This document shows, in pieces, positions 26,254-54,368 of a stretch of DNA of 64,000 bases; position 1 is the first letter of the stretch, and every line of letters starts with the position of its first letter. The notes under the pieces are model-generated. The model worked only from the letters and a program-made list of their open reading frames with translations. It was not told where the DNA came from and made no database searches. The translations under genes and the position numbers were made by a program. The stretch is from Candidatus Moraniibacteriota bacterium (GTDB lineage: Bacteria > Patescibacteriota > Minisyncoccia > Moranbacterales > UBA9337), in contig JAOUHN010000001.1 in NCBI GenBank assembly GCA_029865125.1, positions 1,360-65,359 on the forward strand. Reading direction: 5' to 3'.

Positions 26254-26325
26254 CACTGTCATCCTGAACTTGCTTTGCCTCGCCTTGGGCGGGATTCAGG
26301 ATCCCGTCATAACAGCGCAACTCAG
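26254..26325. repeat. REP-like dispersed element, copy A (TGTCATCCTGAAC...TTCAGGATCCC hairpin)
   Basis: Shares the core with the copies at 45288, 47305 and 54318; this copy has a 22-bp insertion in the loop. Confidence 0.8.
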
Positions 26326-26580
26326 CTATATCACCCCAAAATAACTTCATCAAATATAAAATAGGTATAACTTTACCTAAATTATACCTATTTTATACCT
26401 ATTTATCTTTCCCCGCTTTTGCTCAAAAAACACCTACTTTCACTTATTTTCAACGGCTCATACGGTCGTGTGAGCCGTTGAAATCCCGAGTTTTGCCTCA
26501 TTTTTCCCATTTTTGAGAAAATAAAAACGAGGTGCCGGGGAATTTCCCTAACACCTCGTTCAAGCCTTTCTGGCTTATTT

Positions 26581-26985
26581 TTATCGAATCGTCCACCAAA
26601 GGGCTTTCTCTCCGTATCGAGCCACAAAACCTCTGTCTTCCTTTAATAAACCCTCAATCAATGGGATCAACTCATTCATGCAATCAAACAATTGATTGTT
26701 TTTTGAGCTAATATCCAGTATTTTATCGCCAATATAGAGAAGTGCCTCTACAACGCGACCTTGATACAGTATCCTAACCATAATCGGACCCATCAAGGAA
26801 GGGTCACTACACCCCCCAGCAATGTATCTGGCAACGTCATTCGAATCATGCGCCTCATGAATCACGCAAGGAGTAGCTCTATTTTTAGCCATGTCAATCC
26901 TCCTTTTAGCCCCTTCTATCTCTTCTTCAGTTCGACCTCTGACCATGCATCCCCCTCTATAGGTTTCGTCTTTATTTACTAGCAC
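26581..26985 (-). CDS. Hypothetical protein on a short higher-GC segment
   Basis: 134-aa ORF with roughly 48% GC against roughly 33% in the surroundings. Two strong hairpins lie 3' of it (26452-26482 and 26527-26560). Confidence 0.4.
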   Translation of the reverse strand: MLVNKDETYRGGCMVRGRTEEEIEGAKRRIDMAKNRATPCVIHEAHDSNDVARYIAGGCSDPSLMGPIMVRILYQGRVVEALLYIGDKILDISSKNNQLFDCMNELIPLIEGLLKEDRGFVARYGEKALWWTIR

Positions 26986-27061
26986 TTGTTAGTGCTCTAT
27001 TTGCCAAAAACACTTTTTTCAAAGTGAGGTTCTATTCTGTTACAATATTCAATTTTTGTCA

Positions 27062-27097
27062 AACAAAAAACACCCTGCTTTGTCGGGGTGTTTTTTG
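27062..27097. terminator. Bidirectional terminator (ACACCC-N9-GGGGTGT flanked by A and T runs)
   Basis: Directly readable from the sequence. Confidence 0.65.
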
Positions 27098-27115
27098 TTC
27101 TGTTCCAAGTATGTT

Positions 27116-28291
27116 TTATTTCTCAGCCAATTTTCTTCTAAGTTCCTCTAATTCTGCCTCTTGTCGCGCAATTATTTCTTTCTTTTTCTTATCTTCTTTT
27201 TTTAGATTCTCATTTTCTTCAGTCAAGCTATCAATTTTTTCCTGATCACTTCTTCCGGAGCGATAAATTGACTCAGTGAGTCTTTCCTTTTCATCTTCTG
27301 ATTCAGCTCTTCTTTCTTGATCCTTTTCCTTATTAACACTCATTTCCTTATCAGAAATACTAATCATCTTTTCAATAACATTCACTAATAATTCCTCATA
27401 TCCTTTGCCTTCAATATTTTCACCATCTAAAACATCCCTCAAAGCATCCTTCAAAATTGCCACCCCACCGCTAATGCTCGCTTTGAAACGAAAATCCCGT
27501 GGCCACGAGTCTGTGTCGAAACCTATTTTATCATAGGCTGCTTTCTGTTCATCATTAGAAAAATCCTGAACATCATCCATATCCAAACTTCCAACGTCCT
27601 CTTGGATTTTTTCAATAACATATTCAATAAACGTCCTATCTTTCACATTTTCTCCATCTATTCCAACAAAATCACTTTTTTCATTGAGTGATTTGCTCGC
27701 CTTAATCGCACACATAAATTCATCTCCTGATCTTCTTGCTGGATAAAACTTAATTCCAGATTCTCTCAACCACATTGCAGTTTTCCCTCCATTGAAAACA
27801 TCCGCGATTTTTTTCAAGAACAAGTCACCCGCATCATGCTTTCCTAGTGCATGATCATTGACTGATTTGAGGCCATCCACGTCAAAAAAAATCATGGCGC
27901 TTTTGCTCAAATCCTCAAAAGATCCCTCCCTGCTTTCAATTAAGTTGTCATCTACAAGCTCCAGAAGCTCCGCTTTGAGAAAATTGAAATTGGCAATTCC
28001 AATTCGATCATCATAATAATTCGCAAGAGCGTCCAAAACAAACCATCTGGAAGTTTTTCGCAAAGCCCCTTCATTTACCTCCATCTCCCTTAGCTCTTTT
28101 ACCCTGTTACTAATAATCTCAACAGCCCCCTCAGGAAGACTACACCTTACTTCAAGATCCTTCAAAATCTTTTCAATTTTCACCTCTTCTCTATCCCTTT
28201 TCTTTGTCATCCCTTCAACTAACTGTTCTATTTTTTCATCTCTCTCGGGAACATTTTCTGCACTAGGCATCATTCCTTGTTCTTTCATCAT
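27116..28291 (-). CDS. GGDEF-like nucleotidyl cyclase domain protein with degenerate SGDEF motif, N-terminal helical domain and C-terminal coiled coil
   Basis: IFFDVDGLKSVND ... GKHDAGDLFL ... YPARRSGDEFMCAIK matches the GGDEF palm-domain order D-x-D-x-[FL]-K-x-x-N-D / GHxxGD / RxGG[DE]EF. The C-terminus is charged and heptad-repeat-like. Confidence 0.6.
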   Translation of the reverse strand: MMKEQGMMPSAENVPERDEKIEQLVEGMTKKRDREEVKIEKILKDLEVRCSLPEGAVEIISNRVKELREMEVNEGALRKTSRWFVLDALANYYDDRIGIANFNFLKAELLELVDDNLIESREGSFEDLSKSAMIFFDVDGLKSVNDHALGKHDAGDLFLKKIADVFNGGKTAMWLRESGIKFYPARRSGDEFMCAIKASKSLNEKSDFVGIDGENVKDRTFIEYVIEKIQEDVGSLDMDDVQDFSNDEQKAAYDKIGFDTDSWPRDFRFKASISGGVAILKDALRDVLDGENIEGKGYEELLVNVIEKMISISDKEMSVNKEKDQERRAESEDEKERLTESIYRSGRSDQEKIDSLTEENENLKKEDKKKKEIIARQEAELEELRRKLAEK

Positions 28292-28356
28292 ATTTTCTTA
28301 TTTTATCTTATCATTAATATTCTACCACAAAACGAAAATTTCAGTGATTCTAGGAC

Positions 28357-29250
28357 CTATCTCTTTGATTCAAGCACACCGTTTCTAGTGCTTCCATTTT
28401 TTCTCCATTCGCTACATTTCAAAACCTTGTCCCCACCCTGAAAACACTTATTATAGGAATCTAGACGACCCTCATACAAATAACTTTCTGCGTCAACAAT
28501 TTCCCCATGCATATACAAATGCCTCGAATCTTTCCCAAATGGCCCGCAAGCATCAAAAGTCCTGGCGTCAGCATTTTCAACTTTGACTCGACATCCCTCT
28601 GCTGTTTTTCCAATTTCTTCTGTTCCAATGTAATACACATTCTTTCCATCACTCGCATAATCATTGCTGCACTCAAACAAACTGAAGTTTTCAAGCAATG
28701 GGTATTGTTTGTTGTCACAATAATAATGTTTGTTGTCCAAACCACGATTAGACTCCGCATCCATCACAACAAAGGACTTCGGGTCAGAACCATCAAAAGC
28801 AATCAATTCTTTTGAATTATTCAAAAACACCTTGTCTCCATCATCAAAAAATGAATTGCATTTCCCTTCTCCCACCATGCTAAACTCAGAGGCCTCCACA
28901 TCGTCAACTACTGTCAACGCATTGAATACATATCCATTGCCATCACTTCTATCATCAAGAAAAAAAACTTTTTCATTGTCTCTTGCTATCATTCCACTGC
29001 AGCCAACCGCTTCAAATGAGTCCACTTGTGCTTGAGGAATGGTTTTGACAAGTGGCAACGCTGACTGCATGCCAAAACGACTCATGTCAAAATGAATCAG
29101 ATACCTGTCCACATAATACACCTTAAAAGAATCCTTATAATACCCTGCTTTTCCTATCTTCTCCTTGCCAAAAGGAGTGAAGACATAGGCAGCAACCAGT
29201 GCCACCACAGAGACCGCAATCAAATAGAACACCCATCCTCTTTTGTTCAT
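28357..29250 (-). CDS. Membrane-anchored DKNYY-type repeat protein
   Basis: N-terminal TM helix; repeated D(G)KN(V/Y)YY...ADxxTF units (DGKNVYYIGTEE..ADARTFDA; DNEKVFFLDD; GDKVFLNN; DNKHYYCDNK). Confidence 0.55.
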   Translation of the reverse strand: MNKRGWVFYLIAVSVVALVAAYVFTPFGKEKIGKAGYYKDSFKVYYVDRYLIHFDMSRFGMQSALPLVKTIPQAQVDSFEAVGCSGMIARDNEKVFFLDDRSDGNGYVFNALTVVDDVEASEFSMVGEGKCNSFFDDGDKVFLNNSKELIAFDGSDPKSFVVMDAESNRGLDNKHYYCDNKQYPLLENFSLFECSNDYASDGKNVYYIGTEEIGKTAEGCRVKVENADARTFDACGPFGKDSRHLYMHGEIVDAESYLYEGRLDSYNKCFQGGDKVLKCSEWRKNGSTRNGVLESKR

Positions 29251-29388
29251 AGCGAAAGATTTTAAATTTTACTTTTCTATTCTACCATAAAACGAAAAAC
29301 CGAGCATGAATGGTGTTGTTGACAAAAACTGAAATTTGTATATAATGAAGTGTAGCTTTTGTGGTTTTTTTATTACCCAAAAAATTAT

Positions 29389-29462
29389 AGCGGGGTGGAG
29401 CAGTCTGGCAGCTCGTGTGGCTCATAACCACAAGGTCGCAGGTTCGAATCCTGCCCCCGCAA
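29389..29462 (+). tRNA. tRNA with CAU anticodon (Met or Ile2-lysidine; A1·A72 mismatch, A11:U24)
   Basis: Acceptor AGCGGGG/CCCCGCA, anticodon arm TGTGG-CTCATAA-CCACA, T-arm GCAGG-TTCGAAT-CCTGC. Confidence 0.8.
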
Positions 29463-29518
29463 CACGAAGAATTGAGAGTGAGTTTTACAAGGAGTGAAAA
29501 ATACTCCTGGGCATATTT

Positions 29519-29592
29519 GCCAGGGTAGCTCAGTTGGTTAGAGCGCGGGACTCATAAGCCCGAGGTCGTGAGTTCAACTCTCACTCCTGGTA
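29519..29592 (+). tRNA. Second tRNA with CAU anticodon
   Basis: GCCAGGG-TA-GCTC-AGTTGGTTA-GAGC-G-CGGGA-CTCATAA-GCCCG-AGGTC-GTGAG-TTCAACT-CTCAC-TCCTGGT-A. Confidence 0.8.
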
Positions 29593-29595
29593 CAA

Positions 29596-29668
29596 AAAAC
29601 ATACAGCACATAACATGCAACATGCAGCAATTTTTTTGTTCTATGTTTCATGAGATGTGTTTCATGAA
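29596..29668. repeat. Heptanucleotide array between tRNAs (both orientations)
   Basis: AAAACAT ACAGCAC ATAACAT GCAACAT GCAGCAA ... ATGTTTC ATGAGAT GTGTTTC ATGAATA. Confidence 0.7.
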
Positions 29669-29675
29669 TAAACAC

Positions 29676-29749
29676 GGGGGCGTAGCTCAGCTGGTTAGAG
29701 CGATTGCCTGTCACGCAATAGGTCGAGGGTTCGAGTCCCTTCGCTCCCG
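29676..29749 (+). tRNA. tRNA-Asp (anticodon GUC)
   Basis: GGGGGCG-TA-GCTC-AGCTGGTTAG-AGC-G-ATTGC-CTGTCAC-GCAAT-AGGTC-GAGGG-TTCGAGT-CCCTT-CGCTCCC-G; discriminator G. Confidence 0.85.
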
Positions 29750-29945
29750 CAGAAGAAACTTGAAACAGAGTCGCCTTAGCTCTGTTTTAAGTTTTCTATT
29801 AGACAGAAAAGGATGAAAAGGGTATTTTAAAAAGACACCTGATCCTTTTCTTCAAGCATCCATAAGGTAAAAGCTCTTTGTAATAGAAAAGGTTTTTAGT
29901 TAGTAGCTATTGTCATCCTTTATTATCAACAGTGAAAAGACACAT

Positions 29946-30428
29946 TTAGCAAAAAATGCTTCCCATTATGTTCTGAAAAAAAACTAACTTATTTTTATAA
30001 AAAACCTGCTCCTTAGCAATGAAATAGCTCCAGTCACCATTTTTTTCAAAGACGTATTTCCAATCCTCAATTTCATATTTTTCAGGACCTCTAAGAGGAT
30101 TATTTTCATCAGTATTTCTAAGGGCTTCTTTTAGAAAAGCATAAGATTGATCTGGTTTTACTAAATCGTTTTCAATAAATTGTCCTTGATAAGCCATTGT
30201 CCAAAATGGCTTATTTTTATAGAAAACAATCTCTTTTCCGGGTGGAAAAATGTGGCCAGAATAGCTATCGTAATAAAGCCAATCATCTTTGGAAAATGAA
30301 TATTCAGTGTGTCCCAACATCTTTACCTTCTTACATCTGGTTAATGCTCTGTCTTCATCGGTTCCGGCATAAGTTTTTGAATGAGCTAAAAATAAAAATT
30401 TTTTAAACGCAGCTTCTTTTTTTATCAT
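29946..30428 (-). CDS. Hypothetical protein (160 aa, Trp/Tyr-rich)
   Basis: ORF only; divergent from the radical SAM operon. Confidence 0.45.
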   Translation of the reverse strand: MIKKEAAFKKFLFLAHSKTYAGTDEDRALTRCKKVKMLGHTEYSFSKDDWLYYDSYSGHIFPPGKEIVFYKNKPFWTMAYQGQFIENDLVKPDQSYAFLKEALRNTDENNPLRGPEKYEIEDWKYVFEKNGDWSYFIAKEQVFYKNKLVFFQNIMGSIFC

Positions 30429-30554
30429 TGACTTAGATTGAATTTAATGCTATATTTTTTTATCGAGCTCCTTAAGCCCGATAGTATCTTAATAATAGAA
30501 TAAACGTGAGAATAAGGCAATAAGCCAAAAACAAAGTCTTAGAGGAGATGATTT

Positions 30555-31523
30555 ATGACGAAACGAAAGAATGTGGTATGGAACTTAACTAAACTGTGTC
30601 CATTTGGATGCACCTTCTGCTGTGTGTCAGCAACTTACGTTAAAGGTTTTAAACAAGTTTTTTCTGTCAATGATGATACGCCTGTGATTGAAAGTGAATT
30701 ATCCTTCAACAAACAGTTGCAAGTAATTGATCAATTGGATGCTGAAAAGTTTAGGATCGACTTTTCAGGAGGAGATGTATTGATAAATCCACGAAACATT
30801 GATCTAATTATCTTGGCGTCTGAAAAATTTGGAGCGGAAAATATTGGGTTAAGCATCCCTGGCACATTTACAACTCCAAATAATTTAAGTAAGTTAACTG
30901 GAAGGATTAATGATGTTGAGATTACGATGGATACTACGCCGGATATAAATTATTCTTATCGTCCGCTAAATTATGCTGAACACGCTTCTGATGCTATAGC
31001 AAGATTGGTAGACGCAGGATTTTTTGTTGGAGTACAAACCGTGTTGCGCAGGGAAAATATGTTTAAAGAGACGATTAAAAGACTACACAAGCACTTATTG
31101 CTGCTTGGGGTAAAAAAATGGAGTTTTTTAAAATTTGCTCCTGTGGGAAGAGGCTATAGTAAGTGTGAAAATCATCCCAGTGACGAAGAATACCGTAAAT
31201 TTTCTGACGTCATAAAACACGTAACCCTGAACTCAATGATTGAGGTACATTATCAATACCTGATGCCGTTGAGTCCTGCAAGAGACTTTTATTGTCGTGC
31301 AATTAAAGATTCTATCGGCATTGCGCCAGACGGGACTGTAAGTTCTTGCTTTTGGGCTTTTAATCAAAATGGAAAACCTTTTGATGATGTTGTGTTAGGC
31401 AAGGTTCCAGAGGATAACATCCTTGATATTTTGAAATCTGAAAAAGCAAGAGAATGGCTTTCATATGGTAAAACCAAAAATTATTGTCCCCTTAAAAAAA
31501 TTCTCAGAGGAGGAGTGATATGA
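30555..31523 (+). CDS. Radical SAM enzyme (CxxxCxxC) with C-terminal Cys-containing SPASM/twitch-like region
   Basis: N-terminal LCPFGCTFCC (Cx3Cx2C), FSGGDVL (GGE-like SAM motif), and C-terminal SSCFWAF...NYCP. 322 aa. Confidence 0.75.
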   Translation: MTKRKNVVWNLTKLCPFGCTFCCVSATYVKGFKQVFSVNDDTPVIESELSFNKQLQVIDQLDAEKFRIDFSGGDVLINPRNIDLIILASEKFGAENIGLSIPGTFTTPNNLSKLTGRINDVEITMDTTPDINYSYRPLNYAEHASDAIARLVDAGFFVGVQTVLRRENMFKETIKRLHKHLLLLGVKKWSFLKFAPVGRGYSKCENHPSDEEYRKFSDVIKHVTLNSMIEVHYQYLMPLSPARDFYCRAIKDSIGIAPDGTVSSCFWAFNQNGKPFDDVVLGKVPEDNILDILKSEKAREWLSYGKTKNYCPLKKILRGGVI

Positions 31524-33275: not shown

Positions 33276-33290
33276 GCTCTTAAATTTAAC

Positions 33291-33335
33291 GCTCCCCAGT
33301 AAGATGTATCTTACTGGGGAGTTTTATTTTTGGGT
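33291..33335 (+). terminator. Operon terminator (CCCCAGTAAGAT-GTA-TCTTACTGGGG plus T-rich tail)
   Basis: A 12-bp perfect stem. Confidence 0.7.
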
Positions 33336-33714
33336 AATCAATAAAACAAATCTGTCGAGGTTAATAGCTTAAAATTTTCTTTATTTTCAAGCAAAAAAGT
33401 TCGAACTTCGTTCACTTGTCCCCGCAAACGAATTGAGGCTTTTTTAAGCCTCTTTTTTGATACAAAATTTTGGACAAAGATACAGACTCGAATTTTTAAA
33501 GCGAACAAGAAGAAAGAAACTCTGATTCAAAAAATGAGCCTAATTTATTGATTTCCTCTTGTTTTTTTGAAAAATTCCTTCATACTAAAGGCGCTAAGTT
33601 AGTCAGAGAAGCACGGCTCAAAAAGACAACTAACTCCTTAAAGCAAATGACTGAAAAGAGGCTGAAAAATGAGTGCCATAATAATAGTGTGCTTAAAACA
33701 CAGCAGTAACATTT

Positions 33715-34203: not shown

Positions 34204-34364
34204 AAAGCCTATTTTAGGGATAGTTTTGTTTAAGTGCTAGCTTATTTTTTATTCCCCCAAAACCAACCTCTCTCACAACAAAAAAGTGAATAAGATGAAA
34301 TACATAGGTAACACTATAAATTTAGTAAAATTAAAAAATAATAACTTAAAATAATTAAAATTCC

Positions 34365-34562
34365 ATACCTGTCATTCCGGAAAATATATTTTTCAGTCTG
34401 AGTAATCGAAAACTTGAAAAATAGTTTATCCGGAATCTACGCTAACAATAGCCCCAGAATTACTATATCATCTCAGATTATATACAGCGTAGATTCCGGA
34501 TAAGTTAATTTCTTTGAGCTCGATTACTCGCTCAAGAAATTATACTTTCCGGAATGACAAGA
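34365..34562. repeat. Roughly 200-bp nested imperfect palindrome (MITE-like long hairpin)
   Basis: Perfect outer inverted repeat TGTCATTCCGGAAA (34368-34381 with 34546-34559). Perfect inner inverted repeat TATCCGGAATCTACGCT (34428-34444 with 34485-34501). Arms are colinear with equal 43-nt spacers of about 65% identity (GAGTAATCGA / TCGATTACTC). Confidence 0.8.
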
Positions 34563-34633
34563 TAAAGAGAAAGGCTTCAATTAATTCTTAAACTTAGTAT
34601 ACCATGCGTGCTATTTTAATACTCAAGAGAAAA

Positions 34634-34807
34634 TGAAGGTGATTGCTAATCTCACGGACAAATATCTGAATGAAAAAAGCATAACACCTTCTAAAGTTTT
34701 AGAGTTCATGGGATGCGCACCTGCGGCCATAAAGCAAATTGAATCCGGAATCACCCTCCAGGATCCCTATGTAAAGTTTCTTATGCTGATCGTTAAAAGT
34801 GATTAAA
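34634..34807 (+). CDS. Possible small ORF (57 aa) next to the palindrome
   Basis: MKVIANLTDKYLNEKSITPSKVLEFMGCAPAAIKQIESGITLQDPYVKFLMLIVKSD. Contains a CAGGATCCC repeat-core fragment. Weak support. Confidence 0.2.
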
Positions 34808-42615: not shown

Positions 42616-42660
42616 TTCATATTATTAAATTTTATTTTTCTCGTCAAGAAGGCTCTGGAA

Positions 42661-42692
42661 ACATGAAGCATAGAGCATAAAACATGGAACAC
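42661..42692. repeat. Heptanucleotide array (reverse orientation)
   Basis: ACATGAAGCATAGAGCATAAAACATGGAACAC. Confidence 0.55.
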
Positions 42693-42744
42693 AAATCAAA
42701 ACTCATCAGTTAGCTTACACGTACGTGCTGCATATCCTATACTA

Positions 42745-42773: not shown

Positions 42774-42860
42774 ATAACTTTACGGACTTTATGGACTTTA
42801 CGGACTTTATGGACTTTACGGACTTTACGGACTTCCAGGACTTTATGGACCTTACGAACC
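42774..42860. repeat. 9-bp tandem repeat (ACTTTAYGG), about 9 units
   Basis: actttacgg actttatgg actttacgg actttatgg actttacgg actttacgg acttccagg actttatgg accttacga. Confidence 0.9.
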
Positions 42861-44662: not shown

Positions 44663-44671
44663 ATACTTTCT

Positions 44672-44727: not shown

Positions 44728-44898
44728 TTATTTTACATTCCTATCTCAAATCACAAATCTCATCTCTCAAATCTTATTGTTACTTGTAAAAAAGGAAATG
44801 TCAATGTAAGATACTAATTGCAAGTAAAAAGTAATATTTGATTTTCTATTTTTAATTGAAAAAATTTAGACATCGAAAATTGACTCTTAAATTTTAAA

Positions 44899-45177
44899 TT
44901 GAAAATTGAAAATTTTACGCTTATGTTAGACAAAATGAAACAACTGTATCAAATGAAAAAAATGCTTGAAGGTATCGCTTCAACAGAAGACTACAAAGGA
45001 GTGAAGGTAACCGTCAATGGTTCCATGAAAGTTTTGAGCGTTGAAATCAGTGACCAAGCCCGAGAAAGTCAGGATTTGGAAAAAAACATCGTCAAATCAA
45101 TCAACAACGCGATGAAGAACGTTCAGAAGAAGATGCAAAAGGAAATGAAAGCCGGAAATCTAGAAATGCCGTTTTAA
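44899..45177 (+). CDS. ybaB: Nucleoid-associated protein YbaB/EbfC family
   Basis: MKQLYQMKKMLEGIASTEDYKGVKVTVNGSMKVLSVEISDQA...; 92 aa. The start may be the internal MLDKMKQ. Confidence 0.75.
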   Translation: MKIENFTLMLDKMKQLYQMKKMLEGIASTEDYKGVKVTVNGSMKVLSVEISDQARESQDLEKNIVKSINNAMKNVQKKMQKEMKAGNLEMPF

Positions 45178-45225
45178 GACTAGCAATCAGTAATTCATAA
45201 CTGGTAACTAGAAATTGAAATAAAA

Positions 45226-45262
45226 AAAATAGAGCGTTTGCTGCAGTAGTACAGCAAACGCT
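45226..45262 (+). terminator. Terminator hairpin (AGAGCGTTTGCTG-N-CAGCAAACGCTCT)
   Basis: A 13-bp stem followed by TTTAATAT. Confidence 0.6.
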
Positions 45263-45287
45263 CTTTAATATATCCTTCAACCTCCCG

Positions 45288-45350
45288 TTGCTTGTCATCC
45301 TGAACTTGGTTCAGGATCCCGTAATACTAGCACGCACTCAGTTTTACTTC
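45288..45350. repeat. REP-like dispersed element, copy B
   Basis: CTTGTCATCCTGAACTTGGTTCAGGATCCCGTAATACTAGCACGCACTCAG. Confidence 0.85.
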
Positions 45351-45489
45351 TAAATTCTCACCTTCTAATTCCCATTCCCAAATTCGCATATTCATGAATT
45401 CTCAGCTTCCTCGCGCGTACTAATTTGGCAATAATGCACAAAAAGTATAGAATACATATGCTTAAGAAATAAACATTTATCAAAAAACT

Positions 45490-46842
45490 ATGCTAGACAC
45501 AATTTTCAAAGCCTACGACGTTCGAGGAATCTATCCGGAACAAATCAATGAAGACATCGCCTATAAGATTGGACGTGCTTTTGTTCGCTTTTTGGGGGCC
45601 AAAAAGGTGGTGATTGGATGCGACATCCGAGAATCCAGCCCAGCCCTTTTTGAAAAATTGCAACAAGGAATCGTTGACGAAGGTGCGGATGTATATGACC
45701 TAGACCTTGTGACCACTCCAATGCTGTACTACGCATCTGGAAAACTAGACGTGGACGGAGGAATCATTCTCACCGCTTCTCACAACCCAGGGGAATACAA
45801 TGGAATGAAGTTTTGCAGAGCTGAGGCTGTTCCAATCGGAGAAAACAGTGGGCTTTTGGACATCAAAGAAATTGTTGCCAACGGAAAATTTCCGGAACCT
45901 ACTGAAAGAGGAACGATCATCAAAAAAGATATCAAAGATGAATTCATTGACTATCTTGCCTCTTTCATGAACATTGGGGACAAAAAATTCAAGGTTGTGG
46001 CTGATTTTGCCAACGCCATGAGTATTCTCGAAATCGGACTATACAAAAAATTTGAAAAAAACATTGAACTTATCACTCTTTTTGACGAATTTGACAGCAC
46101 TTTCCCAAATCATGAGGCCAACCCGCTCAAAACAGAAACATTAAAAGACCTTCAAGCAGTAGTGTCTTCTCAAAAAGCTGACATCGGAATCGCCTATGAC
46201 GGAGACGGAGACAGAGCTGGGTTTGTGGATGAAAAAGGAGAAGTTATTTCTATGGATCTCACAACAGCTCTAATCGCAAAGGTGATTCTTGAAAAACACC
46301 CTGGAGCAAAAATCCTATATGATCTTCGCTCCTCAATGTCTGTGAAGGAAGTAATTGAAGAAAACGGAGGAGTTGCTGGAGAATGTCGTGTTGGTCACGC
46401 TCTTATCAAAAAACAAATGCTCGAAGAAAATGCAATTTTTGCTGGAGAATTGTCAGGACACTACTATTTCCAAGAAAACTTCCGCGCAGAAGCAGGGTCA
46501 TTGCCAATGGTGTATCTTTTGAATCTCATGGCTGAAACAGGAAAATCTATTTCTGAATTAGTTGCCGACGTGAAAAGATACTATCACAGCGGAGAAATTA
46601 ACAGCGAGGTCAAAGACAAGGACGCGATTATTGCCACTTTAAAGGAAAAATATGCCGCTGGAGAAATCACAGAGCTCGATGGAGTGAAAATCAGTTTCTG
46701 GAGCAACAAACAAGGAGAACGCTGGTGGCTCAATGTTCGCCCTTCCAACACAGAACCCGTTCTCAGACTCAATCTTGAAGCTGACAACCAGGAACTAATG
46801 GAACAAAAAAGAGACGAGATCTTGGCAATCATCAGAGGATAA
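45490..46842 (+). CDS. Phosphomannomutase/phosphoglucomutase (alpha-D-phosphohexomutase family)
   Basis: Active site TASHNPGEYNGMKF and metal-binding DGDGDR. 450 aa. Confidence 0.9.
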   Translation: MLDTIFKAYDVRGIYPEQINEDIAYKIGRAFVRFLGAKKVVIGCDIRESSPALFEKLQQGIVDEGADVYDLDLVTTPMLYYASGKLDVDGGIILTASHNPGEYNGMKFCRAEAVPIGENSGLLDIKEIVANGKFPEPTERGTIIKKDIKDEFIDYLASFMNIGDKKFKVVADFANAMSILEIGLYKKFEKNIELITLFDEFDSTFPNHEANPLKTETLKDLQAVVSSQKADIGIAYDGDGDRAGFVDEKGEVISMDLTTALIAKVILEKHPGAKILYDLRSSMSVKEVIEENGGVAGECRVGHALIKKQMLEENAIFAGELSGHYYFQENFRAEAGSLPMVYLLNLMAETGKSISELVADVKRYYHSGEINSEVKDKDAIIATLKEKYAAGEITELDGVKISFWSNKQGERWWLNVRPSNTEPVLRLNLEADNQELMEQKRDEILAIIRG

Positions 46843-46858
46843 CAAAAAAATATTTAAC

Positions 46859-46890
46859 AAAGCCTGCAATTGCAGGCTTTTTAATTTGAC
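46859..46890 (+). terminator. Terminator (AAGCCTGCAATTGCAGGCTT plus T5)
   Basis: Perfect palindrome followed by a T-run. Confidence 0.7.
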
Positions 46891-46969
46891 AAAAATCTAA
46901 TCTCATACAACAATTAAGTACCAGAAAAACAGCTCTTTATTCGCTAATCTCAACGAAAGCGAGGGTATC

Positions 46970-47215
46970 ATGTTTAAAATTCATCTTTGTCATGTACCTA
47001 CTGGAATTGGCATTATTGCAAAGCAAAAAAATATCAATGAAAATACTGTTCCCTCCGTTATCCTTGGATTTATCGATCATTTCAGGCAAAGCTTTCCTGG
47101 CGCAACAATACGTCCAGAGGAAGTAGTTGTCATGGTTCCGCAGCAGAAACCCCCGCCATTGCCAGCGCTCAACACTAAGCCTTTGCCACACAGTTGGATG
47201 ACTTTGTCACACTAA
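46970..47215 (+). CDS. Hypothetical small protein on a higher-GC patch
   Basis: SD-like GAGGG lies 5 nt before the ATG. Pro-rich with no homology. An alternative ORF is on the opposite strand. Confidence 0.3.
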   Translation: MFKIHLCHVPTGIGIIAKQKNINENTVPSVILGFIDHFRQSFPGATIRPEEVVVMVPQQKPPPLPALNTKPLPHSWMTLSH

Positions 47216-47304
47216 TCAAAGCTCCAACAACCAGCGATTCCCTTCATCTCACCTGAAGGCTGAATCGCTGTTTTTTTACCTACAAACTCACATCCACCAA
47301 AAAA

Positions 47305-47352
47305 CACTGTCATCCTGAATTTAGTTCAGGATCCCCAAATACTAGCACCCAA
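47305..47352. repeat. REP-like dispersed element, copy C
   Basis: CACTGTCATCCTGAATTTAGTTCAGGATCCCCAAATACTAGCACCC. Confidence 0.85.
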
Positions 47353-47420
47353 TTCTATTATCTTCCATTTCTCACCTCTCCTGTCTCAAATCTATCTTCT
47401 CATTCGTAATTCGTATATAT

Positions 47421-47475
47421 AAAAAAAGCCCGGCCAGTAGTCCTCAACTACCAACCGGGTCTAAAATTTTTTGGA
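47421..47475 (-). terminator. Terminator for fabZ (GC hairpin plus T-run on the minus strand)
   Basis: Reverse strand: GACCCGGTTGGTAGTTGAGGACTACTGGCCGGGC plus T7. Confidence 0.55.
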
Positions 47476-47488
47476 AAAATGCAAAAAC

Positions 47489-47947
47489 TCAGCCAAAAAC
47501 CTGATCAACGTTCACAAAGGATCCCGAAAATTTTGCACTGGCAATCAATTTGTCGTCCACATAAGCTTTTCCGGACAAAAAATACTTGCCCATTTTTACT
47601 TTTTCGATTTTCACCTCATACACAATGCGATCCCCGGGTTTCACCATTCCCTTAAAACGTGAGTCGCTCACCCCACTAAGAATTGGCAGCTTTTGACCCA
47701 CTTGACTGGGATTATGAAGGTAATAAAGCAACGCGCTTGTTTGCGCCATTCCTTCCACAGTCCACAACCCTGGAAAAATAGGATGTCCGGGAAAATGGCC
47801 CTGAACCAACGGTTCGTTTACGGACACATTTTTTTCTGCCCTGATGAACTCGTCATTAAACTCAATCACTTTCTCGACAAGCAAAATCGGGGGTTTATGC
47901 GGAAGAGTTGATAAAATCTCCTGAATTCCAATTGTTTTCTTTGACAT
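47489..47947 (-). CDS. fabZ: 3-hydroxyacyl-ACP dehydratase FabZ
   Basis: LPHKPPILLVEKV...NEPLVQGHFPGHPIFPG (hot-dog fold, catalytic His). Start at 47947 with the RBS GAGGTGA; the ORF-track ORF extends to 48016. Confidence 0.9.
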   Translation of the reverse strand: MSKKTIGIQEILSTLPHKPPILLVEKVIEFNDEFIRAEKNVSVNEPLVQGHFPGHPIFPGLWTVEGMAQTSALLYYLHNPSQVGQKLPILSGVSDSRFKGMVKPGDRIVYEVKIEKVKMGKYFLSGKAYVDDKLIASAKFSGSFVNVDQVFG

Positions 47948-48093
47948 TATATCACCTCGCAAAAAGATTAATCTAAAAATCGAATAGTCCCACTTGCTCG
48001 CAAGCCATTGCGACACAAATTACCAAAAATACGATAGTGCCAATCATGCTGGCGTTTTTTAGTATCCAATTCACGATGATCCTCCTTTTATGG

Positions 48094-48252
48094 TTAAAGT
48101 TGTCCAAACCAGGCAACTATACTGTACAGGAATTCTTTTACGGCCTTGAAAAAACCCAGGCGATAAAACAAATCTGTTAATCCAGCCCAAAAAAGAGCTG
48201 TGAACACCAAAACGCCTATTCTTCCCAAACGTTTTTCTTTATTCGGCTCCAT
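48094..48252 (-). CDS. Small membrane protein on a high-GC patch
   Basis: MEPNKEKRLGRIGVLVFTALFWAGLTDLFY...; roughly 50% GC. Confidence 0.35.
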   Translation of the reverse strand: MEPNKEKRLGRIGVLVFTALFWAGLTDLFYRLGFFKAVKEFLYSIVAWFGQL

Positions 48253-48631
48253 TTGCGCCTCCCTTGTCCGAATTGAAAAAAACATACCCACCCCAATACC
48301 GTCGGGGCTTTTGGTTGCTCTTCGATTGCTTGACTTCAACGATCAATTCGTTGACGTCGATGACCTTCCATCCATCCGCATTGCGTTCTCCAAATTCATA
48401 TTGAACATACCCCAGCATAGCCAGGATGCAACAAAAAGCGAGAATTTGCCATGTCCGTATCCCTTCGTCGGTGAACTCAAATAGTCTGTGTGTAACCGCG
48501 ACCAATAAAATCGCAATCGCAACTACGCCTATCCAGATCCAACCAGGGATCATGAAAAGCTTAAACAAGCCCATACCGCAATACAGGGCCACCAACAAAA
48601 GAATTCCTCCTCCAATCAGATACTTTTTCAT
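48239..48631 (-). CDS. Membrane protein (three TM helices) on a high-GC patch
   Basis: 130 aa. Composition is atypical for the window. Confidence 0.45.
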   Translation of the reverse strand: MKKYLIGGGILLLVALYCGMGLFKLFMIPGWIWIGVVAIAILLVAVTHRLFEFTDEGIRTWQILAFCCILAMLGYVQYEFGERNADGWKVIDVNELIVEVKQSKSNQKPRRYWGGYVFFNSDKGGANGAE

Positions 48632-48658
48632 CGTCTGCTCCTTTCTTGAAAAAATTAA

Positions 48659-49645
48659 CTATTGTAGAAATCCCACCTTATTTTTCACCTCATCCATCTT
48701 GTTTTTCGCAATGGATGAAACTTTTTTTGCATTTTCCAAAAGAAGTTCAATGACTTCCTCATCTTTCAAAGAGCTATACTTTTCCTGAAATGGAATTATG
48801 AACTCTAAAACAGTTTCTGTCAATCCTTTTTTGAATTCTCCAAACCCTTTTCCTTCATATTCCGCGACAATTTCTTCTGGGCTTTTTCCTGAAAATGAAG
48901 AATATATGTTGATCAAGTTTTGAATCGCTGGCCTGTCGTCACTGTAGGTGATGTCTGACCCACTGTCAGTGACCGCTCTTTTGATTTTTTTCTCAACAAT
49001 TTCCGGCGAATCCAAGAGCGAGATGTAGTTCATTTCAGAAGTTGCAGATTTGCTCATTTTCTTGGCTGGATCATCAAGCCCCATCACTCGCATTGTTTCT
49101 TTCTTGAGATGACCCTTTGGAACCACAAAAGTGTCCCCAAACCGCTTGTTAAACCTTCTTGCAAGAGTTCTGGCAAGCTCAATGTGCTGCATTTGATCCT
49201 CTCCCACAGGCACCACCTCAGTGTCATACAACAAAATGTCTGCTGCCATGAGAACCGGATAATCAAAAAGTCCAACTCTTGCGCTCTCTAGCCCATCTTT
49301 CTGAGACTTATCCTTAAACTGGGTCATCTTCTCAAGCTCACTCATTCCCGTGATTGTGTTGAGAATCCATGCCAACTCAGCGTGCTCACTCACTTGCGAC
49401 TGGACATAGATTGTTGATTTTTTCGGGTCAATCCCCGCTGCCAAATACACCTTAGCCACTTCCAAAGTCTTTCTTCGAAGTTCTTCTGGATCTTGAGAAA
49501 CTGTGATTGCATGAAGGTCAACAATGCAAAAAATTGACTCGAACTCATCTTGAAGATCAACCCAATTCTTGATCGCACCCAAATAATTCCCAATATGCAC
49601 GTCTCCACTTGGCTGAACTCCTGAAAAAATCCTTTTTTTACTCAT
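48659..49645 (-). CDS. trpS: Tryptophanyl-tRNA synthetase
   Basis: HIGH motif FSGVQPSGDVHIGNYLGA and KMSKS motif KKMSKS. Start at 49645. Confidence 0.92.
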   Translation of the reverse strand: MSKKRIFSGVQPSGDVHIGNYLGAIKNWVDLQDEFESIFCIVDLHAITVSQDPEELRRKTLEVAKVYLAAGIDPKKSTIYVQSQVSEHAELAWILNTITGMSELEKMTQFKDKSQKDGLESARVGLFDYPVLMAADILLYDTEVVPVGEDQMQHIELARTLARRFNKRFGDTFVVPKGHLKKETMRVMGLDDPAKKMSKSATSEMNYISLLDSPEIVEKKIKRAVTDSGSDITYSDDRPAIQNLINIYSSFSGKSPEEIVAEYEGKGFGEFKKGLTETVLEFIIPFQEKYSSLKDEEVIELLLENAKKVSSIAKNKMDEVKNKVGFLQ

Positions 49646-50083
49646 AAATATACGAATTACGAATCCGCTACAAATATACAAATGTACGAATTACTAATTT
49701 AAAATTATTTTTTTCAATCTCTTTCTTTTCACAAAGAGTTTTTAAATAAAAATTTTCACAAAAAATCCCGAGGGAGAGATGATTTTCCCAAAAAATGCGT
49801 GAGTCAGCACAAGTGTTATACGTATGTAAACGGAGTGGAGCATTTTTTGTTAGAAAATCGCGCCCGCCCCGTCTTTCGCGAATGACAGGGCCCGAGCATT
49901 TTTTTGAAAAATTTTATTTAAAAACCCTACCATCATCCTACCTCAAACCACCCATCAAATCAACAGCGACAGCAGTCAAACCCTATCGACAAGCACTTTT
50001 GAATATGCTAATCTACATAAAGAAAGTATCGATTGCATATGAAAAAATAATTTACCAATCAAACATTAAAATTACAAAATAAG

Positions 50084-50743
50084 ATGAACATTCAATACTA
50101 CGGGCATTCTTGCTTCAAAATCACAACAAAACCAGAAGGACGCGGAGCTGAAGACATTTCTCTTTTCATTGATCCATTTGAAAAAGAAGTGGGACTAAAG
50201 CCACCACAAGGACAAGCTGACATTGTCCTCATCTCTCATGGACATTTTGATCACAACAATACCAGCTCATTGAAAGGAGAGCCTGTGATCATCAACACTC
50301 CTGGAGAATTTGCGGTCAAAGGATTGCACATTATTGGTCTCGATACATTTCATGACAAAAGCGAAGGAGCTGAAAGAGGGCGAAATACGGTTTTTATCAT
50401 TGAAACCGAGGATTTACGCATTTGTCACATGGGAGACATTGGAACAGAGCCGACTCCTGAGCAACTTGATGAAATCGGAGAAGTTGATGTTTTGATGATT
50501 CCTGTTGGAGGAACATTCACACTGGATGGGAAAGAAGCCATGAAACTTGTTCACAAAATTGAGCCCAAAACAGTGATCCCAATGCACTACAAAACAAAAG
50601 ACAGTAAAATATCCGACATTCAAGACGAAAAAGAATTCTGTGACGAAATGGGAAACTGTCCGAAAGAAAAAATAAACAAAATCACACTGAAAAAGAAAGA
50701 TTCGGAAGAAAAGGGTATGGAAATTGTTCTTATGACTGCCTAA
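50084..50743 (+). CDS. Metallo-beta-lactamase-fold hydrolase
   Basis: LISHGHFDH (HxHxDH), with downstream His and Asp ligands. 219 aa. Confidence 0.8.
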   Translation: MNIQYYGHSCFKITTKPEGRGAEDISLFIDPFEKEVGLKPPQGQADIVLISHGHFDHNNTSSLKGEPVIINTPGEFAVKGLHIIGLDTFHDKSEGAERGRNTVFIIETEDLRICHMGDIGTEPTPEQLDEIGEVDVLMIPVGGTFTLDGKEAMKLVHKIEPKTVIPMHYKTKDSKISDIQDEKEFCDEMGNCPKEKINKITLKKKDSEEKGMEIVLMTA

Positions 50744-50760
50744 AAACAATTTGAGAAAAA

Positions 50761-51045
50761 ATGGACATCAACAAAAAAATTGAAGAGATAAGACAAAAAC
50801 CAGAGCACGTTCGCATGCAATATGTTTTGTTTTGCGTAGGAGCGTCCATGCTCATTCTTTTTTCTTTCTGGTTATTTTCCTTAAAAAGCACTTTGTCCGG
50901 CGCATTCTCTGGGAATACTCAGAGTGAAGGCACATGCTCAGGTGGAGACAAAACGTGCTCCACTCCATCCAAATCACAAGATTCATCCGGTTCCTCAGAA
51001 AATATTCCCAAAAAATCCATAAATGACCTGATTATTCCAGAATAA
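50761..51045 (+). CDS. Small membrane-anchored hypothetical protein
   Basis: 94 aa with one TM helix and a Ser/Cys-rich tail. Confidence 0.4.
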   Translation: MDINKKIEEIRQKPEHVRMQYVLFCVGASMLILFSFWLFSLKSTLSGAFSGNTQSEGTCSGGDKTCSTPSKSQDSSGSSENIPKKSINDLIIPE

Positions 51046-51173
51046 AAAACAAAAATATATTCTTGAAAAATAATCGTGCACAGCAAGTGCACCGTTGTTT
51101 GTTTGTTTGTCTTTTTTTGCTATTCTCATAGCAAAAAAACATAAACAAATAAAAGTAAAGATTCAAAAAAAAT

Positions 51174-53603
51174 ATGAAAGATAACATCAAACCACAACCG
51201 ATCGTTCAAGAAGTGCAACAATCCTATCTTGATTATGCCATGAGTGTCATCGTATCTCGCGCCCTTCCGGACGTTAGAGATGGACTGAAGCCTGTTCACA
51301 GAAGAATTCTGTATTCCATGTGGAAAACAGGACTCAGGCCAAGTGCAAAATTCAGAAAATCTGCAACCGTAGTTGGAGAAGTGCTTGGAAAATATCACCC
51401 ACATGGTGATAGTGCAGTATACGACTCCATGGTTCGTATGGCTCAAAGCTTCTCACTTCGATACCCTTTGATTTGGGGACAAGGTAACTTTGGTTCAATG
51501 GATGGAGACAGCGCAGCTGCTTATCGTTACACAGAGGCAAAGCTCAACAAAATCGCAGAAGAAATGCTTTTCGATATCGAAAAAGAAACTGTAAATTTTG
51601 TTCCAAATTTCGATGGATCTCACAAAGAGCCTTCTGTTTTGCCTGCCAAGCTTCCTCAATTGCTCTTGAACGGAACTATGGGAATCGCTGTTGGAATGGC
51701 AACCAACATCCCTCCACACAACCTAAATGAATTAGTTGATGCCATAGGTCACTTAATTGAAAATCCAAAAGCCAGCATTGATGATCTCATGCAATTTATC
51801 AAAGGTCCTGATTTTCCAACAGGAGGAGTGATCTACAACACCAAAGAAATCAGAGAAGCCTACGCTACAGGAAAAGGAAAAATCACCGCAAGAGCAAAGG
51901 CCACAATTGAAGAAAAGAAGGCGGGTCAATTTCAAATTGTCATTAACGAAATTACCTATGCAACCAACAAGGCAACTCTTTTGATGAAAATAGCCCAACT
52001 AGTCAAAGACGGAAAAATTCAAGGAATCAAAGATCTCCGAGATGAATCTGACAAAGATGGAGTGAGAATTGTAGTGTATCTAAAAAAGGATGCTTATCCT
52101 CAAAAAATTCTCAATAAGCTATATAAAGCAACTGATCTTCAAAAGAATTTCAACATGAACATGTTGGCGTTAGTCAACGGAATTGAGCCTCAAATTCTCA
52201 ACCTCAAGGCAGTTTTGGAACATTTCATCACTCATCGGGTGGAAGTTGTAACCAGAAGAACTCAGTTTGATCTTCAGAAAGCAAAAGAAAGAGCTCATAT
52301 TCTCGAAGGATTGAAAAAAGCGCTTGATCACATTGATGCAGTCATTGAAACAATCAAGAAATCAAAAAACAGAGAGGTTGCTCACAAAAATTTGATGCAG
52401 AACTTCAAGCTGTCTGACATTCAAGCCACCGCTATCTTGGAAATGAAACTTCAGACACTTTCTGGACTTGAAAGAAAAAAGATTGAAGACGAACTGAAAG
52501 AAAAAATGAAGCTTATTGCAGAACTTGAAGCGATTCTTCAAAGTGAAACCAAAATTCGAAACATCATCAAAAAAGAACTTCTTGAATTGAAAGAAAAATA
52601 TGGTGATGCTCGAAAAACCAGAGTGATCAAATCTGGAATCACTGAATTCAAGCAAGAAGATCTTGTTCCAAATGAAGAGGCTATCATCACTCTTTCTCAA
52701 GATGGCTACATCAAAAGAATGCAACCATCCGTCTATAAGGTTCAAAAGAGAGGTGGAAAAGGTGTGATCGGTGCCAGCACTAAAGAGGGCGATATCATCA
52801 ACCAAGTAAACTCAATTATGTCTCACGATGAACTCATGTTCTTCACAGACAGCGGAAAAGTGTATCAAACCAAAGCCTATGAAATTCCAGAATCATCAAG
52901 AACCGCAAAAGGACAGTCTATCGCAAACTTCCTAGAACTATCCAACAAAGAAAGAATCACAGAAGTAATAGCCTACAACAAAAGCGATAACTACAAATAT
53001 CTATTCATGGCAACAGAAAAAGGGCTCATCAAAAAAGTAAAAATTGATGATTTCGCAAATGTTCGCCGAAGTGGCCTCATTGCCATCAACTTGAATAAAG
53101 ATGATAAACTTGGATGGGTAAAGCCAACCACAGGAACCGACAATATCATCATCACAACAGCCAATGGACAAGCGATACGATTCAAAGAAGCTGACACGAG
53201 AGCCATGGGAAGAAATGCAACTGGAGTTCGCGGAATAAAATTGAAAGGAGAGGACAAGGTTGTTGGAATGGACGCGGTGCTTTCCACTCAAAAAGGTAAC
53301 CAATTATTGATTATCACACAAAAAGGATATGGAAAAAGAGCTAACCTGTCATTATACAAGATTCAAAAACGAGGCGGATCTGGAATAAAAACCGCAAAAA
53401 TCACTCCAAAAACAGGAACTATCGCAGGAGCAACCATTGTCAACACTGAAGACCTGGACAGAGATGTGATCATAACATCCACCAGAGGTCAGATCATCCG
53501 AATTCCACTCAAGAGCTTCTCCACCCTAGGAAGAGCTACTCAAGGAGTCCGAATGATGAGACTAAAAGCAGATGACCACGTAGCAGCTTCAACAGTGCTA
53601 TAG
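51174..53603 (+). CDS. gyrA: DNA gyrase subunit A
   Basis: [24 protein letters not shown], the catalytic Tyr region [11 protein letters not shown], and the GyrA box VQKRGGKGV. 809 aa. Confidence 0.95.
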
Positions 53604-53679
53604 TCCTTGAGCTAACTTTCTGAGAACAATAAAAAGTTATTTACTAAGTGAATAGCTTTTTATTATATCCGAGTAATTC

Positions 53680-53875
53680 AAAGTGCAAAATGCAAAAATC
53701 AAAACCACATTTCAAAGATCAAAACTCTCCATTACCCTATGCATTCTCTAAAAAAATAACTTTTCATAATTAACAAATGAATTCACTGATTTGATATGAC
53801 TACCTGATTTAAAGGTTTTTAGTTGTACATTGTGATTTTGAGTTTTGATCTTTGAGCTTTGATTTGAATTATCCT
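53680..53875 (+). promoter_or_regulatory. Inverted-repeat leader upstream of rpsO (possible S15 autoregulatory structure)
   Basis: CAAAGATCAAAACTC (53713-53727) pairs with GAGTTTTGATCTTTG (53838-53852), with further AAATCAAA/TTTGATTT pairing. Confidence 0.4.
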
Positions 53876-53978
53876 CTTGCCAAAAAAGAAAATTAATGTT
53901 AACGTACAAGTGTAATTTAACTTATAAGGCATGCATTGGTTTTCGGGAATACGGAACGAATGTTTAGCTGAAAAACGT

Positions 53979-54248
53979 ATGGCGCTTACAAAAAAGCAAA
54001 AAGACACAGTAACAAAGGGAGTAAAGAGACACGAAACTGACAGTGGTTCTCCAGAATATCAAATTGCCCTTTTTACTGAGAAGATCAAAAAGCTAACTAC
54101 TCACCTAAAGAAGAACAAGAAAGATTTTCATTCAAGACGTGGTCTTTTGAAAATGGTTTCAAAGAGAAAGAAGCTTATGGGATATCTTCAAAAAACTGAT
54201 GAGAAATCATACAAGAAACTTATCAAAAAACTTGAACTAAAAGGATAA
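53979..54248 (+). CDS. rpsO: 30S ribosomal protein S15
   Basis: MALTKKQK...LTTHLKKNKKDFHSRRGLLKMVSKRKKLMGYL; 90 aa from the internal Met. Confidence 0.93.
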   Translation: MALTKKQKDTVTKGVKRHETDSGSPEYQIALFTEKIKKLTTHLKKNKKDFHSRRGLLKMVSKRKKLMGYLQKTDEKSYKKLIKKLELKG

Positions 54249-54317
54249 AACTTCAAATATACTTTAAAGCGAATGATTTTCATTCGCTTTAATTGTCTAG
54301 AGACCAACCTGCCGCCA

Positions 54318-54368
54318 TTTGTCATCCTGAGCTTGATTCAGGATCCCTAAGTCCTAGCACACACTCGG
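54318..54368. repeat. REP-like dispersed element, copy D
   Basis: TTTGTCATCCTGAGCTTGATTCAGGATCCCTAAGTCCTAGCACACACTCGG. Confidence 0.85.

Follow-up and report, generated by a model that had tools for sequence, protein, structure and literature searches.

Dispersed intergenic hairpins of a Moranbacteria chromosome are CGTC-tagged REPs that come and go among relatives

The closest described counterparts of the elements treated here are the CGTC-tagged repetitive extragenic palindromes (REPs), a superfamily that Di Nocera, De Gregorio and Rocco described in 2013 (BMC Genomics 14:522; PMC3733652) as hairpins with a tag CGTC, TGTC or CCTC, a stem of 8-9 bp with A-T first pairs, a loop of 4-5 nt and a 3-nt tail. 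The tail consensus is CCA, the tag CGTC is often TGTC, and exceptions with longer loops were noted (PMC3733652). Dimers mostly carry their tags outside (the 'HH' arrangement) with spacers of 20-100 bp, head-to-tail arrangements are negligible, and the repeats do not go together with tyrosine transposase genes, including in species that have such genes (PMC3733652). The superfamily was reported from Proteobacteria, Chlorobi, Bacteroidetes, Spirochaetes and Thermotogae, and it includes Neisseria dRS3 (CGTC-1) as well as Rickettsia RPE-4 (CGTC-4) and RPE-6 (CGTC-1) (PMC3733652). Here, we analyzed a family of dispersed hairpins in a 64,000-nt stretch of an 81.8-kb metagenome contig from Candidatus Moranbacteria (Patescibacteria); "the window" denotes this whole stretch, which carries ordinary housekeeping genes and has 38% GC. 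Because their anatomy matches the published definition, we assign the window repeats to the CGTC-tagged REP superfamily; the kind of element is known and the host is new. Overall, we consider it likely that they are CGTC REPs that make up small, non-autonomous, mobile or rapidly turned-over intergenic DNA in the Moranbacteria chromosome.

A first-pass annotation of the window had reported four copies of a REP-like element, and direct reading of the sequence found all four where it had placed them, on the + strand. They have in common a core pattern of TGTC, a ATCCTGAA(C)/(G)TTCAGGAT hairpin, CCC and a CTAGCAC-type tail, which matches the window 6 times against 0.02 expected (100 dinucleotide shuffles, none of which reached 6), two of the six matches arising because copies 2 and 3 are palindromic and are also read on the minus strand. 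Upon scanning with the core pattern and searching for hairpins anchored on GTCAT, we found three members beyond these; the four copies thus stand, as part of a larger window family of 7 at a density of about 1 per 9 kb:

26257..26325, + strand: copy 1, with tag TGTC at 26257-26260 and arms at 26261-26268 and 26295-26302
45278..45341, + strand: copy 2, with TGTC at 45293-45296 and arms at 45297-45305 and 45309-45317
47299..47352, + strand: copy 3, with TGTC at 47308-47311 and arms at 47312-47319 and 47325-47332
54305..54368, + strand: copy 4, with TGTC at 54320-54323 and arms at 54324-54330 and 54338-54344; left half of a tags-outside dimer
54380..54405, - strand: fifth member, with TGTC, stem ATTCTGAA/TTCAGAAT (TCTGAA type), loop TTTGT and tail CTC; right half of that dimer
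34370..34443, + strand: left arm of the long-loop type B pair, with TGTC, stem ATTCCGGA/TCCGGAAT, a 47-nt loop and tail CTACGC
34486..34559, - strand: right arm of the type B pair, with tag, basal stem and tail as in the left arm and a different inner hairpin

The unit seen in the first four copies consists of an unpaired TGTC, an arm ATCCTGA(A/G)(C/T), a loop that is short except in copy 1, the complementary arm and CCC. The shared tail claimed for the family is present in copies 2-4 as CCC-N6-CTAGCAC-N-CACTC and degenerate in copy 1 (CAGCGCA-ACTCAG), and a further 9-16 nt on the 5' side of the tag belong to the repeat, with CAACCTSCCG in copies 2 and 4 and CAAAAAACAC in copies 1 and 3. In copy 1, an 8-bp stem (ATCCTGAA/TTCAGGAT) leads into CCC and the degenerate CTAGCAC-type extension; its loop of 26 nt, against 3-5 nt in the other copies, bears out the ~22 extra nucleotides noticed earlier and upon folding forms an inner hairpin, CTCGCC/GGCGGG. 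Copy 2 has the 5' flank CAACCTCCCG, a 9-bp stem ATCCTGAAC/GTTCAGGAT, loop TTG and tail CCC followed by GTAATA-CTAGCAC-G-CACTCAG, while copy 3 has the flank AAAAAACAC (common with copy 1), an 8-bp stem, loop TTTAG and CCC followed by CAAATA-CTAGCAC. Copy 4 joins the flank CAACCTGCCG to a 7-8 bp stem ATCCTGA(G)/(T)TCAGGAT and CCC, and its extension TAAGTC-CTAGCAC-A-CACTCGG is the spacer of the heterodimer 54320-54405, in which the CCTGAG stem of copy 4 faces the TCTGAA stem of the fifth member across 34 nt. The type B members are 66-nt long-loop TCCGGA hairpins in an inverted pair with 42 nt between the arms. The 47-nt loop of the left arm folds into an extended hairpin (DNA fold at -12.7 kcal/mol, z = -4.5), the right arm folds at -18.5 kcal/mol (z = -6.8), and the 195-nt pair as a whole at -44 kcal/mol (z = -9.4). 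The stems are A/T-rich, at -6 to -8 kcal/mol as DNA, and no T-run follows the hairpins. A stretch at 9294-9350 (TGTCATCTCGAGCG...) that looked like an eighth member failed to fold (z = +1.3) and was not counted.

The intergenic location noted for the four copies extends to all seven members, which lie between called genes. Their description as lying 3' of genes suits copies 2-4, which start 28, 37 and 27 nt past terminator-like hairpins: the tag of copy 2 follows that of ybaB (45231-45264), and copy 3 sits between two convergent ones (47232-47270 on the + strand and 47459-47429 on the - strand). It fits copy 1 poorly, as this singleton is antisense to both flanking minus-strand genes, 256 nt past the upstream stop and 110 nt ahead of the next start. 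The GC skew on the + strand is negative throughout the window (1-64000; -0.03 to -0.28), and the tagged strand of the four tail-bearing CCTGAA hairpins is the C-rich (+) strand, a number (n=4) too small to test.

Point by point, the comparison with the published definition runs as follows. TGTC precedes the stem in 7/7 window members, and CGTC or TGTC does so at related loci. Every stem begins with AT and ends with AT, with C as the next base; stems measure 7-9 bp, and their other six pairs covary, so that the remaining stem varies in sequence and stays complementary. Loops are 3-7 nt long in 4/7 members, 26 nt in copy 1 and 47 nt in the two type B members, the long ones holding inner hairpins. 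The tail is CCC in copies 1-4, CTC in the fifth member and CTA in type B, and CCA occurs in sister hairpins of phage loci. Both dimers, 54320-54405 with its 34-nt spacer and 34370-34559 with 42 nt, have their tags outside, and seven members are dispersed between the genes of 64 kb. No transposase gene accompanies them in the window plus 2.4 kb, and none recurs beside the elements at ~200 other loci. With these defining features of CGTC-tagged REPs (PMC3733652) in place, the loop length in part of the members, and with inverted dimers as in bacterial interspersed mosaic elements (BIMEs) and in REPINs, the REP doublets that form hairpins, the earlier REP/BIME-type reading was right. What did not survive is the notion that the elements have a sequence of their own, since the same 25-nt hairpin, often identical (GTCATCCTGAACTTGTTTCAGGATC), recurs in phage contigs, in several phyla and at at least 120 metagenome loci.

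Other classes of element were tried and rejected. A miniature inverted-repeat transposable element would not fit the aligned filled and empty sites, which have no target-site duplication at their approximate boundaries. The terminator scan does not call the hairpins as intrinsic terminators; CCCGTAATA and similar sequences follow the stems, and separate terminator-like hairpins lie 27-37 nt upstream. Integron attC sites were set aside because CCTGAAC / GTTCAGG do not fit RYYYAAC / GTTRRRY and no integrase gene is nearby, and resemblances to CRISPR repeats and to the T-arm of tRNAs were dropped on reading the sequence. In Rfam, only tRNAs reach the gathering score in the window, nothing overlaps the elements at E <=10 in 45150-54500, and 34300-34640 yields only a generic miRNA-hairpin match. 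When the raw sequence strings were looked up in the literature, they matched nothing but primers in unrelated papers.

Comparison with relatives of the host showed a pattern of gain and loss like that of mobile DNA, because relatives have empty sites and carry the same element types elsewhere. The GyrA of the window has a 100% identical counterpart in a protein assigned by NCBI to a Candidatus Moranbacteria MAG (metagenome-assembled genome). The GyrA relatives after it are labelled Patescibacteria or Moranbacteria, and those used for comparison have 85-90% GyrA identity. Two blocks of the window stand out in the alignments:

54296..54462, no strand assigned: rpsO-NYN block of ~165 nt (dimer plus flanks), from alignment with relatives; boundaries approximate
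45266..45420, no strand assigned: ybaB-glmM block of ~150 nt holding copy 2, from alignment with relative L090; boundaries approximate

The rpsO-NYN spacer measures 222 nt in the window versus 61-79 nt in three relatives, in which the rpsO terminator hairpin is kept, and the ybaB-glmM spacer 312 nt versus 148 nt in L090, the extra block carrying copy 2. Conversely, relative L089 has a CCTGAA/TCTGAA heterodimer downstream of the gene for the CCA-adding enzyme, between the stop codon and a terminator-like hairpin; the same pairing occurs in L079, and L090 has a long-loop TCCGGA dimer at another locus, and also a singleton. Within the long-loop dimer one arm is unlike the other, each matches its counterpart in L090, and therefore the ~190-nt composite travels as a unit, as REPINs do. 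Hence, at least two window copies (copy 2 and the copy-4 dimer) may be recent insertions, subject to possible loss in the relatives.

The family reaches far beyond this lineage. The pattern GTCATCCTGAA-N(3-33)-TTCAGGATC gave 90 matches in 60 viral-contig stretches, most of them the exact 25-mer with loops CTTGT, CTCGT, TTTAT and similar. GenBank phages (INPHARED) gave one weak match only, in an Azobacteroides phage. A pattern that takes in the CTAGCAC tail occurs in genomes of Flavobacteriaceae, Roseivirga, Chitinophagales, Vibrio and Pseudoalteromonas, and also in Alphaproteobacteria, Rhodospirillales, Saccharibacteria and one Patescibacteria MAG, so that identical hairpins span Bacteroidota, Gamma- and Alphaproteobacteria, Saccharibacteria and Patescibacteria. 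The CCTGAA plus TCTGAA heterodimer is present in at least 120 metagenome stretches of 21-58% GC with widely variable spacers (here and below, metagenome counts are among the matches listed). That the hairpins are conserved and the spacers free in genomes this different speaks for horizontal spread or selection acting on the hairpin itself, or for both. Phages L020, L023 and L039 have genes that are 85-94% identical and differ in the hairpin content between these genes, and hairpins of the viral loci run antisense to the genes in 51 cases and sense in 22, by crude calls of open reading frames (ORFs).

Several further observations were made on these loci. The contigs of phages L020, L023 and L039 (as also L004, L009, L031, L033 and L047) carry terminase and Mu-like head genes, and in the phage contigs CGTC hairpins of many stems (TCCCGA, TCCTGC, TTCGAG, TTGCGAG, CCTGAA) form head-to-tail arrays, all antisense to the genes. 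In the Flavobacteriaceae MAG M30B78 and the Roseivirga MAG M30B27 (L063, L065 and L081), a CGTC dimer with a conserved CTAGCAC spacer is repeated in tandem, up to 13 times and every 146, 165 or 177 nt, and the arrays adjoin rfbB-like sugar epimerase genes. A partial head copy (GTCATCC or GTCATCCTGAAC) plus ~10 nt often precedes a full hairpin (e.g. at L078 35-55, L079 ~5020, L037 8391-8435, L063-L069), a stutter that might be left by the way in which copies originate.

Candidates gathered across all loci by their flanks alone (GTCAT ... ATC) numbered 399; all eight pairs are Watson-Crick in 207 of these, where the background peaks at 3-4. Among the 78 distinct 25-mers, 81.9% of cells are paired versus 67% in shuffles, and double changes number 99 versus 31, with 0/500 shuffles reaching the observed value; sliding the partner by one column brings pairing below 50%. 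This covariation shows the hairpin to be under structural constraint. The loop is involved as well: positions 1 and 4 covary (C-G in 31, T-A in 13 and a G.T-type wobble in 6; paired in 52/78), positions 1 and 5 are paired in only 25/78, and given the 1-4 pairing the loop probably turns over two bases and extrudes a third. In the subfamily with TTTCGAG/TTTCGAC stems (L020, L023, L039), tandem G.A/A.G mismatches on the tagged strand outnumber C.T/T.C by 44 to 5, an asymmetry of one subfamily only that would favour folding of the tagged strand alone.

We propose a mechanism in which a protein supplied in trans would recognise the folded single strand through its tag, the first two pairs of its stem and the geometry of its loop, as these are conserved while the stem sequence is free, which points to an enzyme that reads structure plus tag. 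Such a protein would then copy or move the unit, by analogy with the REP-associated tyrosine transposase (RAYT) that acts on GTAG REPs. Whole units (hairpin plus flank, or dimer plus spacer) are present where close relatives have empty sites, and composites of the same make-up recur at unrelated places and in unrelated genomes, phages included. Phages would presumably help to carry the elements between hosts, while use as a recombination target and effects of the RNA on neighbouring genes are possible secondary roles. A bolder and, in our estimate, improbable version holds that the CGTC hairpin is a pan-bacterial, phage-carried replicator rather than a lineage-bound REP. A near-invariant 25-nt hairpin with a preferred partner, in hosts of 21-58% GC and in phages, suggests copying by an enzyme that reads the folded single strand by its tag, its two basal pairs and a loop in which two bases pair across and one is extruded; the one-strand phage arrays and the window copies on the C-rich strand would fit insertion on one template strand of the replication fork, as with IS200/IS605.

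Several points weigh against reading the window elements as mobile or rapidly turned-over DNA. The alignments at rpsO-NYN and ybaB-glmM revealed neither a target-site duplication nor a sharp insertion boundary, and insertion may have proceeded by recombination or gene conversion in place of transposition. For any one site, loss in the relatives, at 85-90% GyrA identity, is possible rather than gain. Instead of mobility, a conserved host factor that selects for the hairpin could account for its being nearly identical across phyla, and the mismatch counts bearing on the folding strand came out mixed, with 10 G.T versus 7 A.C. Moreover, the copy count and the transposase search draw on 64 kb of genome sequence (plus 2.4 kb).

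The first rival to be weighed, to which we give a low probability, places the function in RNA, with the hairpins acting in 3' untranslated regions by protecting 3' ends, terminating transcription or insulating cistrons. This is the classic role in the REP literature, and the case for transcription of many REPs was made by Di Nocera et al. (PMC3733652). It gains from the downstream position of copies 2-4, from the L089 dimer between stop codon and terminator-like hairpin, and from several phage contigs in which hairpins stand between co-directional genes, just ahead of ribosome-binding sites. Because copies 2-4 begin beyond terminator-like hairpins, they probably lie outside the main transcripts as judged from these positions, and the A/T-rich stems of -6 to -8 kcal/mol without a T-run, the absence of the elements at the same genes in relatives, their mixed orientation to genes in the window and the lack of any Rfam family match even at E <=10 all speak against a role in RNA. 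Adjacency to terminators did not hold up as a general rule: a terminator-like hairpin lies within 60 nt in 8% of 104 metagenome dimers versus 7.9% of random windows. Using the crude ORF calls, we classified 79 metagenome dimers as lying between same-direction (59), convergent (11) or divergent genes (9), which is no different from all intergenic gaps at the same loci (358/58/57). The dimers have no 3' preference, the median distances being 54 nt from the preceding stop and 47 nt from the following start, and no preferred orientation, either half coming first (31 vs 28). With no 3', strand or convergent bias, the stabiliser and terminator roles offered by the first-pass annotation are weakened. 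That annotation had also named an outcome that would count against it, a mere four copies without positional bias; many copies were found, yet their position shows no bias beyond being intergenic.

A second rival, which we regard as rather unlikely, takes the hairpins primarily as targets of a site-specific recombinase or integrase, with their spread a by-product of the activity of that enzyme. It has a precedent in dRS3, a CGTC-1 member and the integration target of the filamentous prophage Nf1, and it agrees with the presence of the elements in phage genomes and with hairpin arrays that differ between syntenic phages, as expected of recombination hot spots. Yet no integrase or IS110-type gene is found in the window or recurs beside the elements, no mobile element is inserted in any of the seven window copies, and such targeting alone leaves the multiplication of the hairpins unexplained.

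The third, a classical REP/REPIN population kept by a RAYT (an IS200-like Y1 transposase) elsewhere in the genome, appears very unlikely to us, even though the architecture of unpaired tag, hairpin and REPIN-like inverted dimers is alike and the inspected portion, ~66 kb of a genome taken as ~1 Mb (assumed for bacteria of the candidate phyla radiation, CPR), is small. The tag GTAG (or GTGG) of such REPs is absent, with TGTC in all members, and the RAYT partner suggested earlier is not to be expected, as the 2013 survey saw no link between CGTC repeats and genes for tyrosine transposases (PMC3733652). No transposase-type Pfam domain, including Y1_Tnp, was detected in the window plus the 2.4 kb beyond its start, and no RAYT (Y1 HUH) gene in these ~66 kb. 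Among 412 flanking ORFs at ~200 loci, no gene family recurs next to the elements except phage structural genes of related phages and the rfbB-like sugar epimerase, whose cluster, the largest, comes from one Roseivirga MAG; the absence of a dedicated transposase agrees with the 2013 conclusion (PMC3733652). Furthermore, REPIN-RAYT systems are described as lineage-specific and vertically inherited, whereas the hairpin of the window spans phyla and phages. Chance likeness or ordinary intrinsic terminators, which short A/T-rich elements near terminators in a 38% GC genome might bring to mind, can practically be dismissed given 6 matches versus 0.02 expected, the covarying stems, the conserved unpaired flanks and tail, the missing T-run, and separate canonical terminators that adjoin the elements and are conserved in relatives without them.

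Other repeats were seen in the window. Tandem arrays of YATGYTN with a 7/14-nt period (e.g. ATGTTTCATGTTAT) are intergenic at 239-383, 9452-9511, 20527-20583, 21151-21188, 23755-23796, 29598-29666 and 42660-42698, in both orientations and often just past gene ends or beside the tRNA cluster. About nine tandem copies of the 9-nt ACTTTAYGG lie at 42777-42856, in the spacer that separates the stop of ychF from the start of groEL, two minus-strand genes. A CTCAAATCT-rich motif has four intergenic copies (24204-24253, 24925-24974, 44738-44787 and 47357-47406), the last directly after REP copy 3. Finally, a leader of ~170 nt, in ~90% identical copies at 56968-57153 and 61725-61910 (minus sense), immediately precedes two distinct genes of the minus strand (ORFs 56431..56922 and 60896..61732). 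Its hairpins, CTACGAACC...GGTTCGTA and GCCCG-TTTTT-GGGC, are conserved, Rfam gives no match, radical-SAM genes adjoin, and it is a candidate cis-regulatory leader.

The main gain is one of annotation: these repeats belong to a described REP superfamily and are not a private invention of one genome. Among the papers that a full-text search listed for CPR groups, none contained the REP term, and a 2025 REP survey makes no mention of the group, which hints that REPs may not have been described before in the phylum Patescibacteria. The finding extends CGTC REPs to the CPR, with its tiny genomes and few mobile elements, and thereby sharpens the question of what copies such repeats without a dedicated transposase. 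With a near-identical hairpin in phage structural operons and in many phyla, phage carriage is a concrete route, and the filled and empty sites together with the strand-biased phage arrays provide material for finding the missing enzyme.

Set against known systems, the window elements resemble the GTAG REPs and REPINs with their RAYT (E. coli, Pseudomonas) in the hairpin with a conserved unpaired 5' tetranucleotide, the intergenic location, the inverted doublets foldable as one long hairpin and the presence/absence variation among relatives; they differ in the TGTC tag, in that no RAYT was found, and in a hairpin that spans phyla and phages. Rickettsia RPE-4 and RPE-6 belong to the same superfamily (PMC3733652) and likewise reside in small genomes, but RPEs often lie inside genes, whereas 7/7 window copies are intergenic. 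Neisseria dRS3/NIME, with ATTCCC-N8-GGGAAT in ~700 copies and as a target of the Nf1 prophage integrase, shares the logic of tag and basal stem (GTC-ATTCC...GGAAT-C) and the arrays and mosaics with variable spacers, and sister hairpins with exactly the dRS3 stem adjoin CCTGAA hairpins in phage contigs. In contrast to dRS3, the window copies have CCTGAA, TCTGAA or TCCGGA stems, are sparse instead of forming large arrays, and have no phage integration seen at them. The closest published class is CGTC-2 (8-bp stem / 5-nt loop), a subfamily assigned from the description in the text of that paper. With CGTC REPs, the window elements share the unpaired tag, the A-T/T-A first pairs, a 3-5 nt loop in part of the members, the 3-nt tail, the tags-outside dimers with spacers of 34-42 nt, the heterodimers, the intergenic location and the lack of an adjacent transposase gene. 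They differ in their Patescibacteria host, outside the five phyla of the 2013 paper, in a tail that is CCC/CTC and not CCA, in the structured loops of 26 and 47 nt of three members, and in the conserved CTAGCAC extension after the tail.

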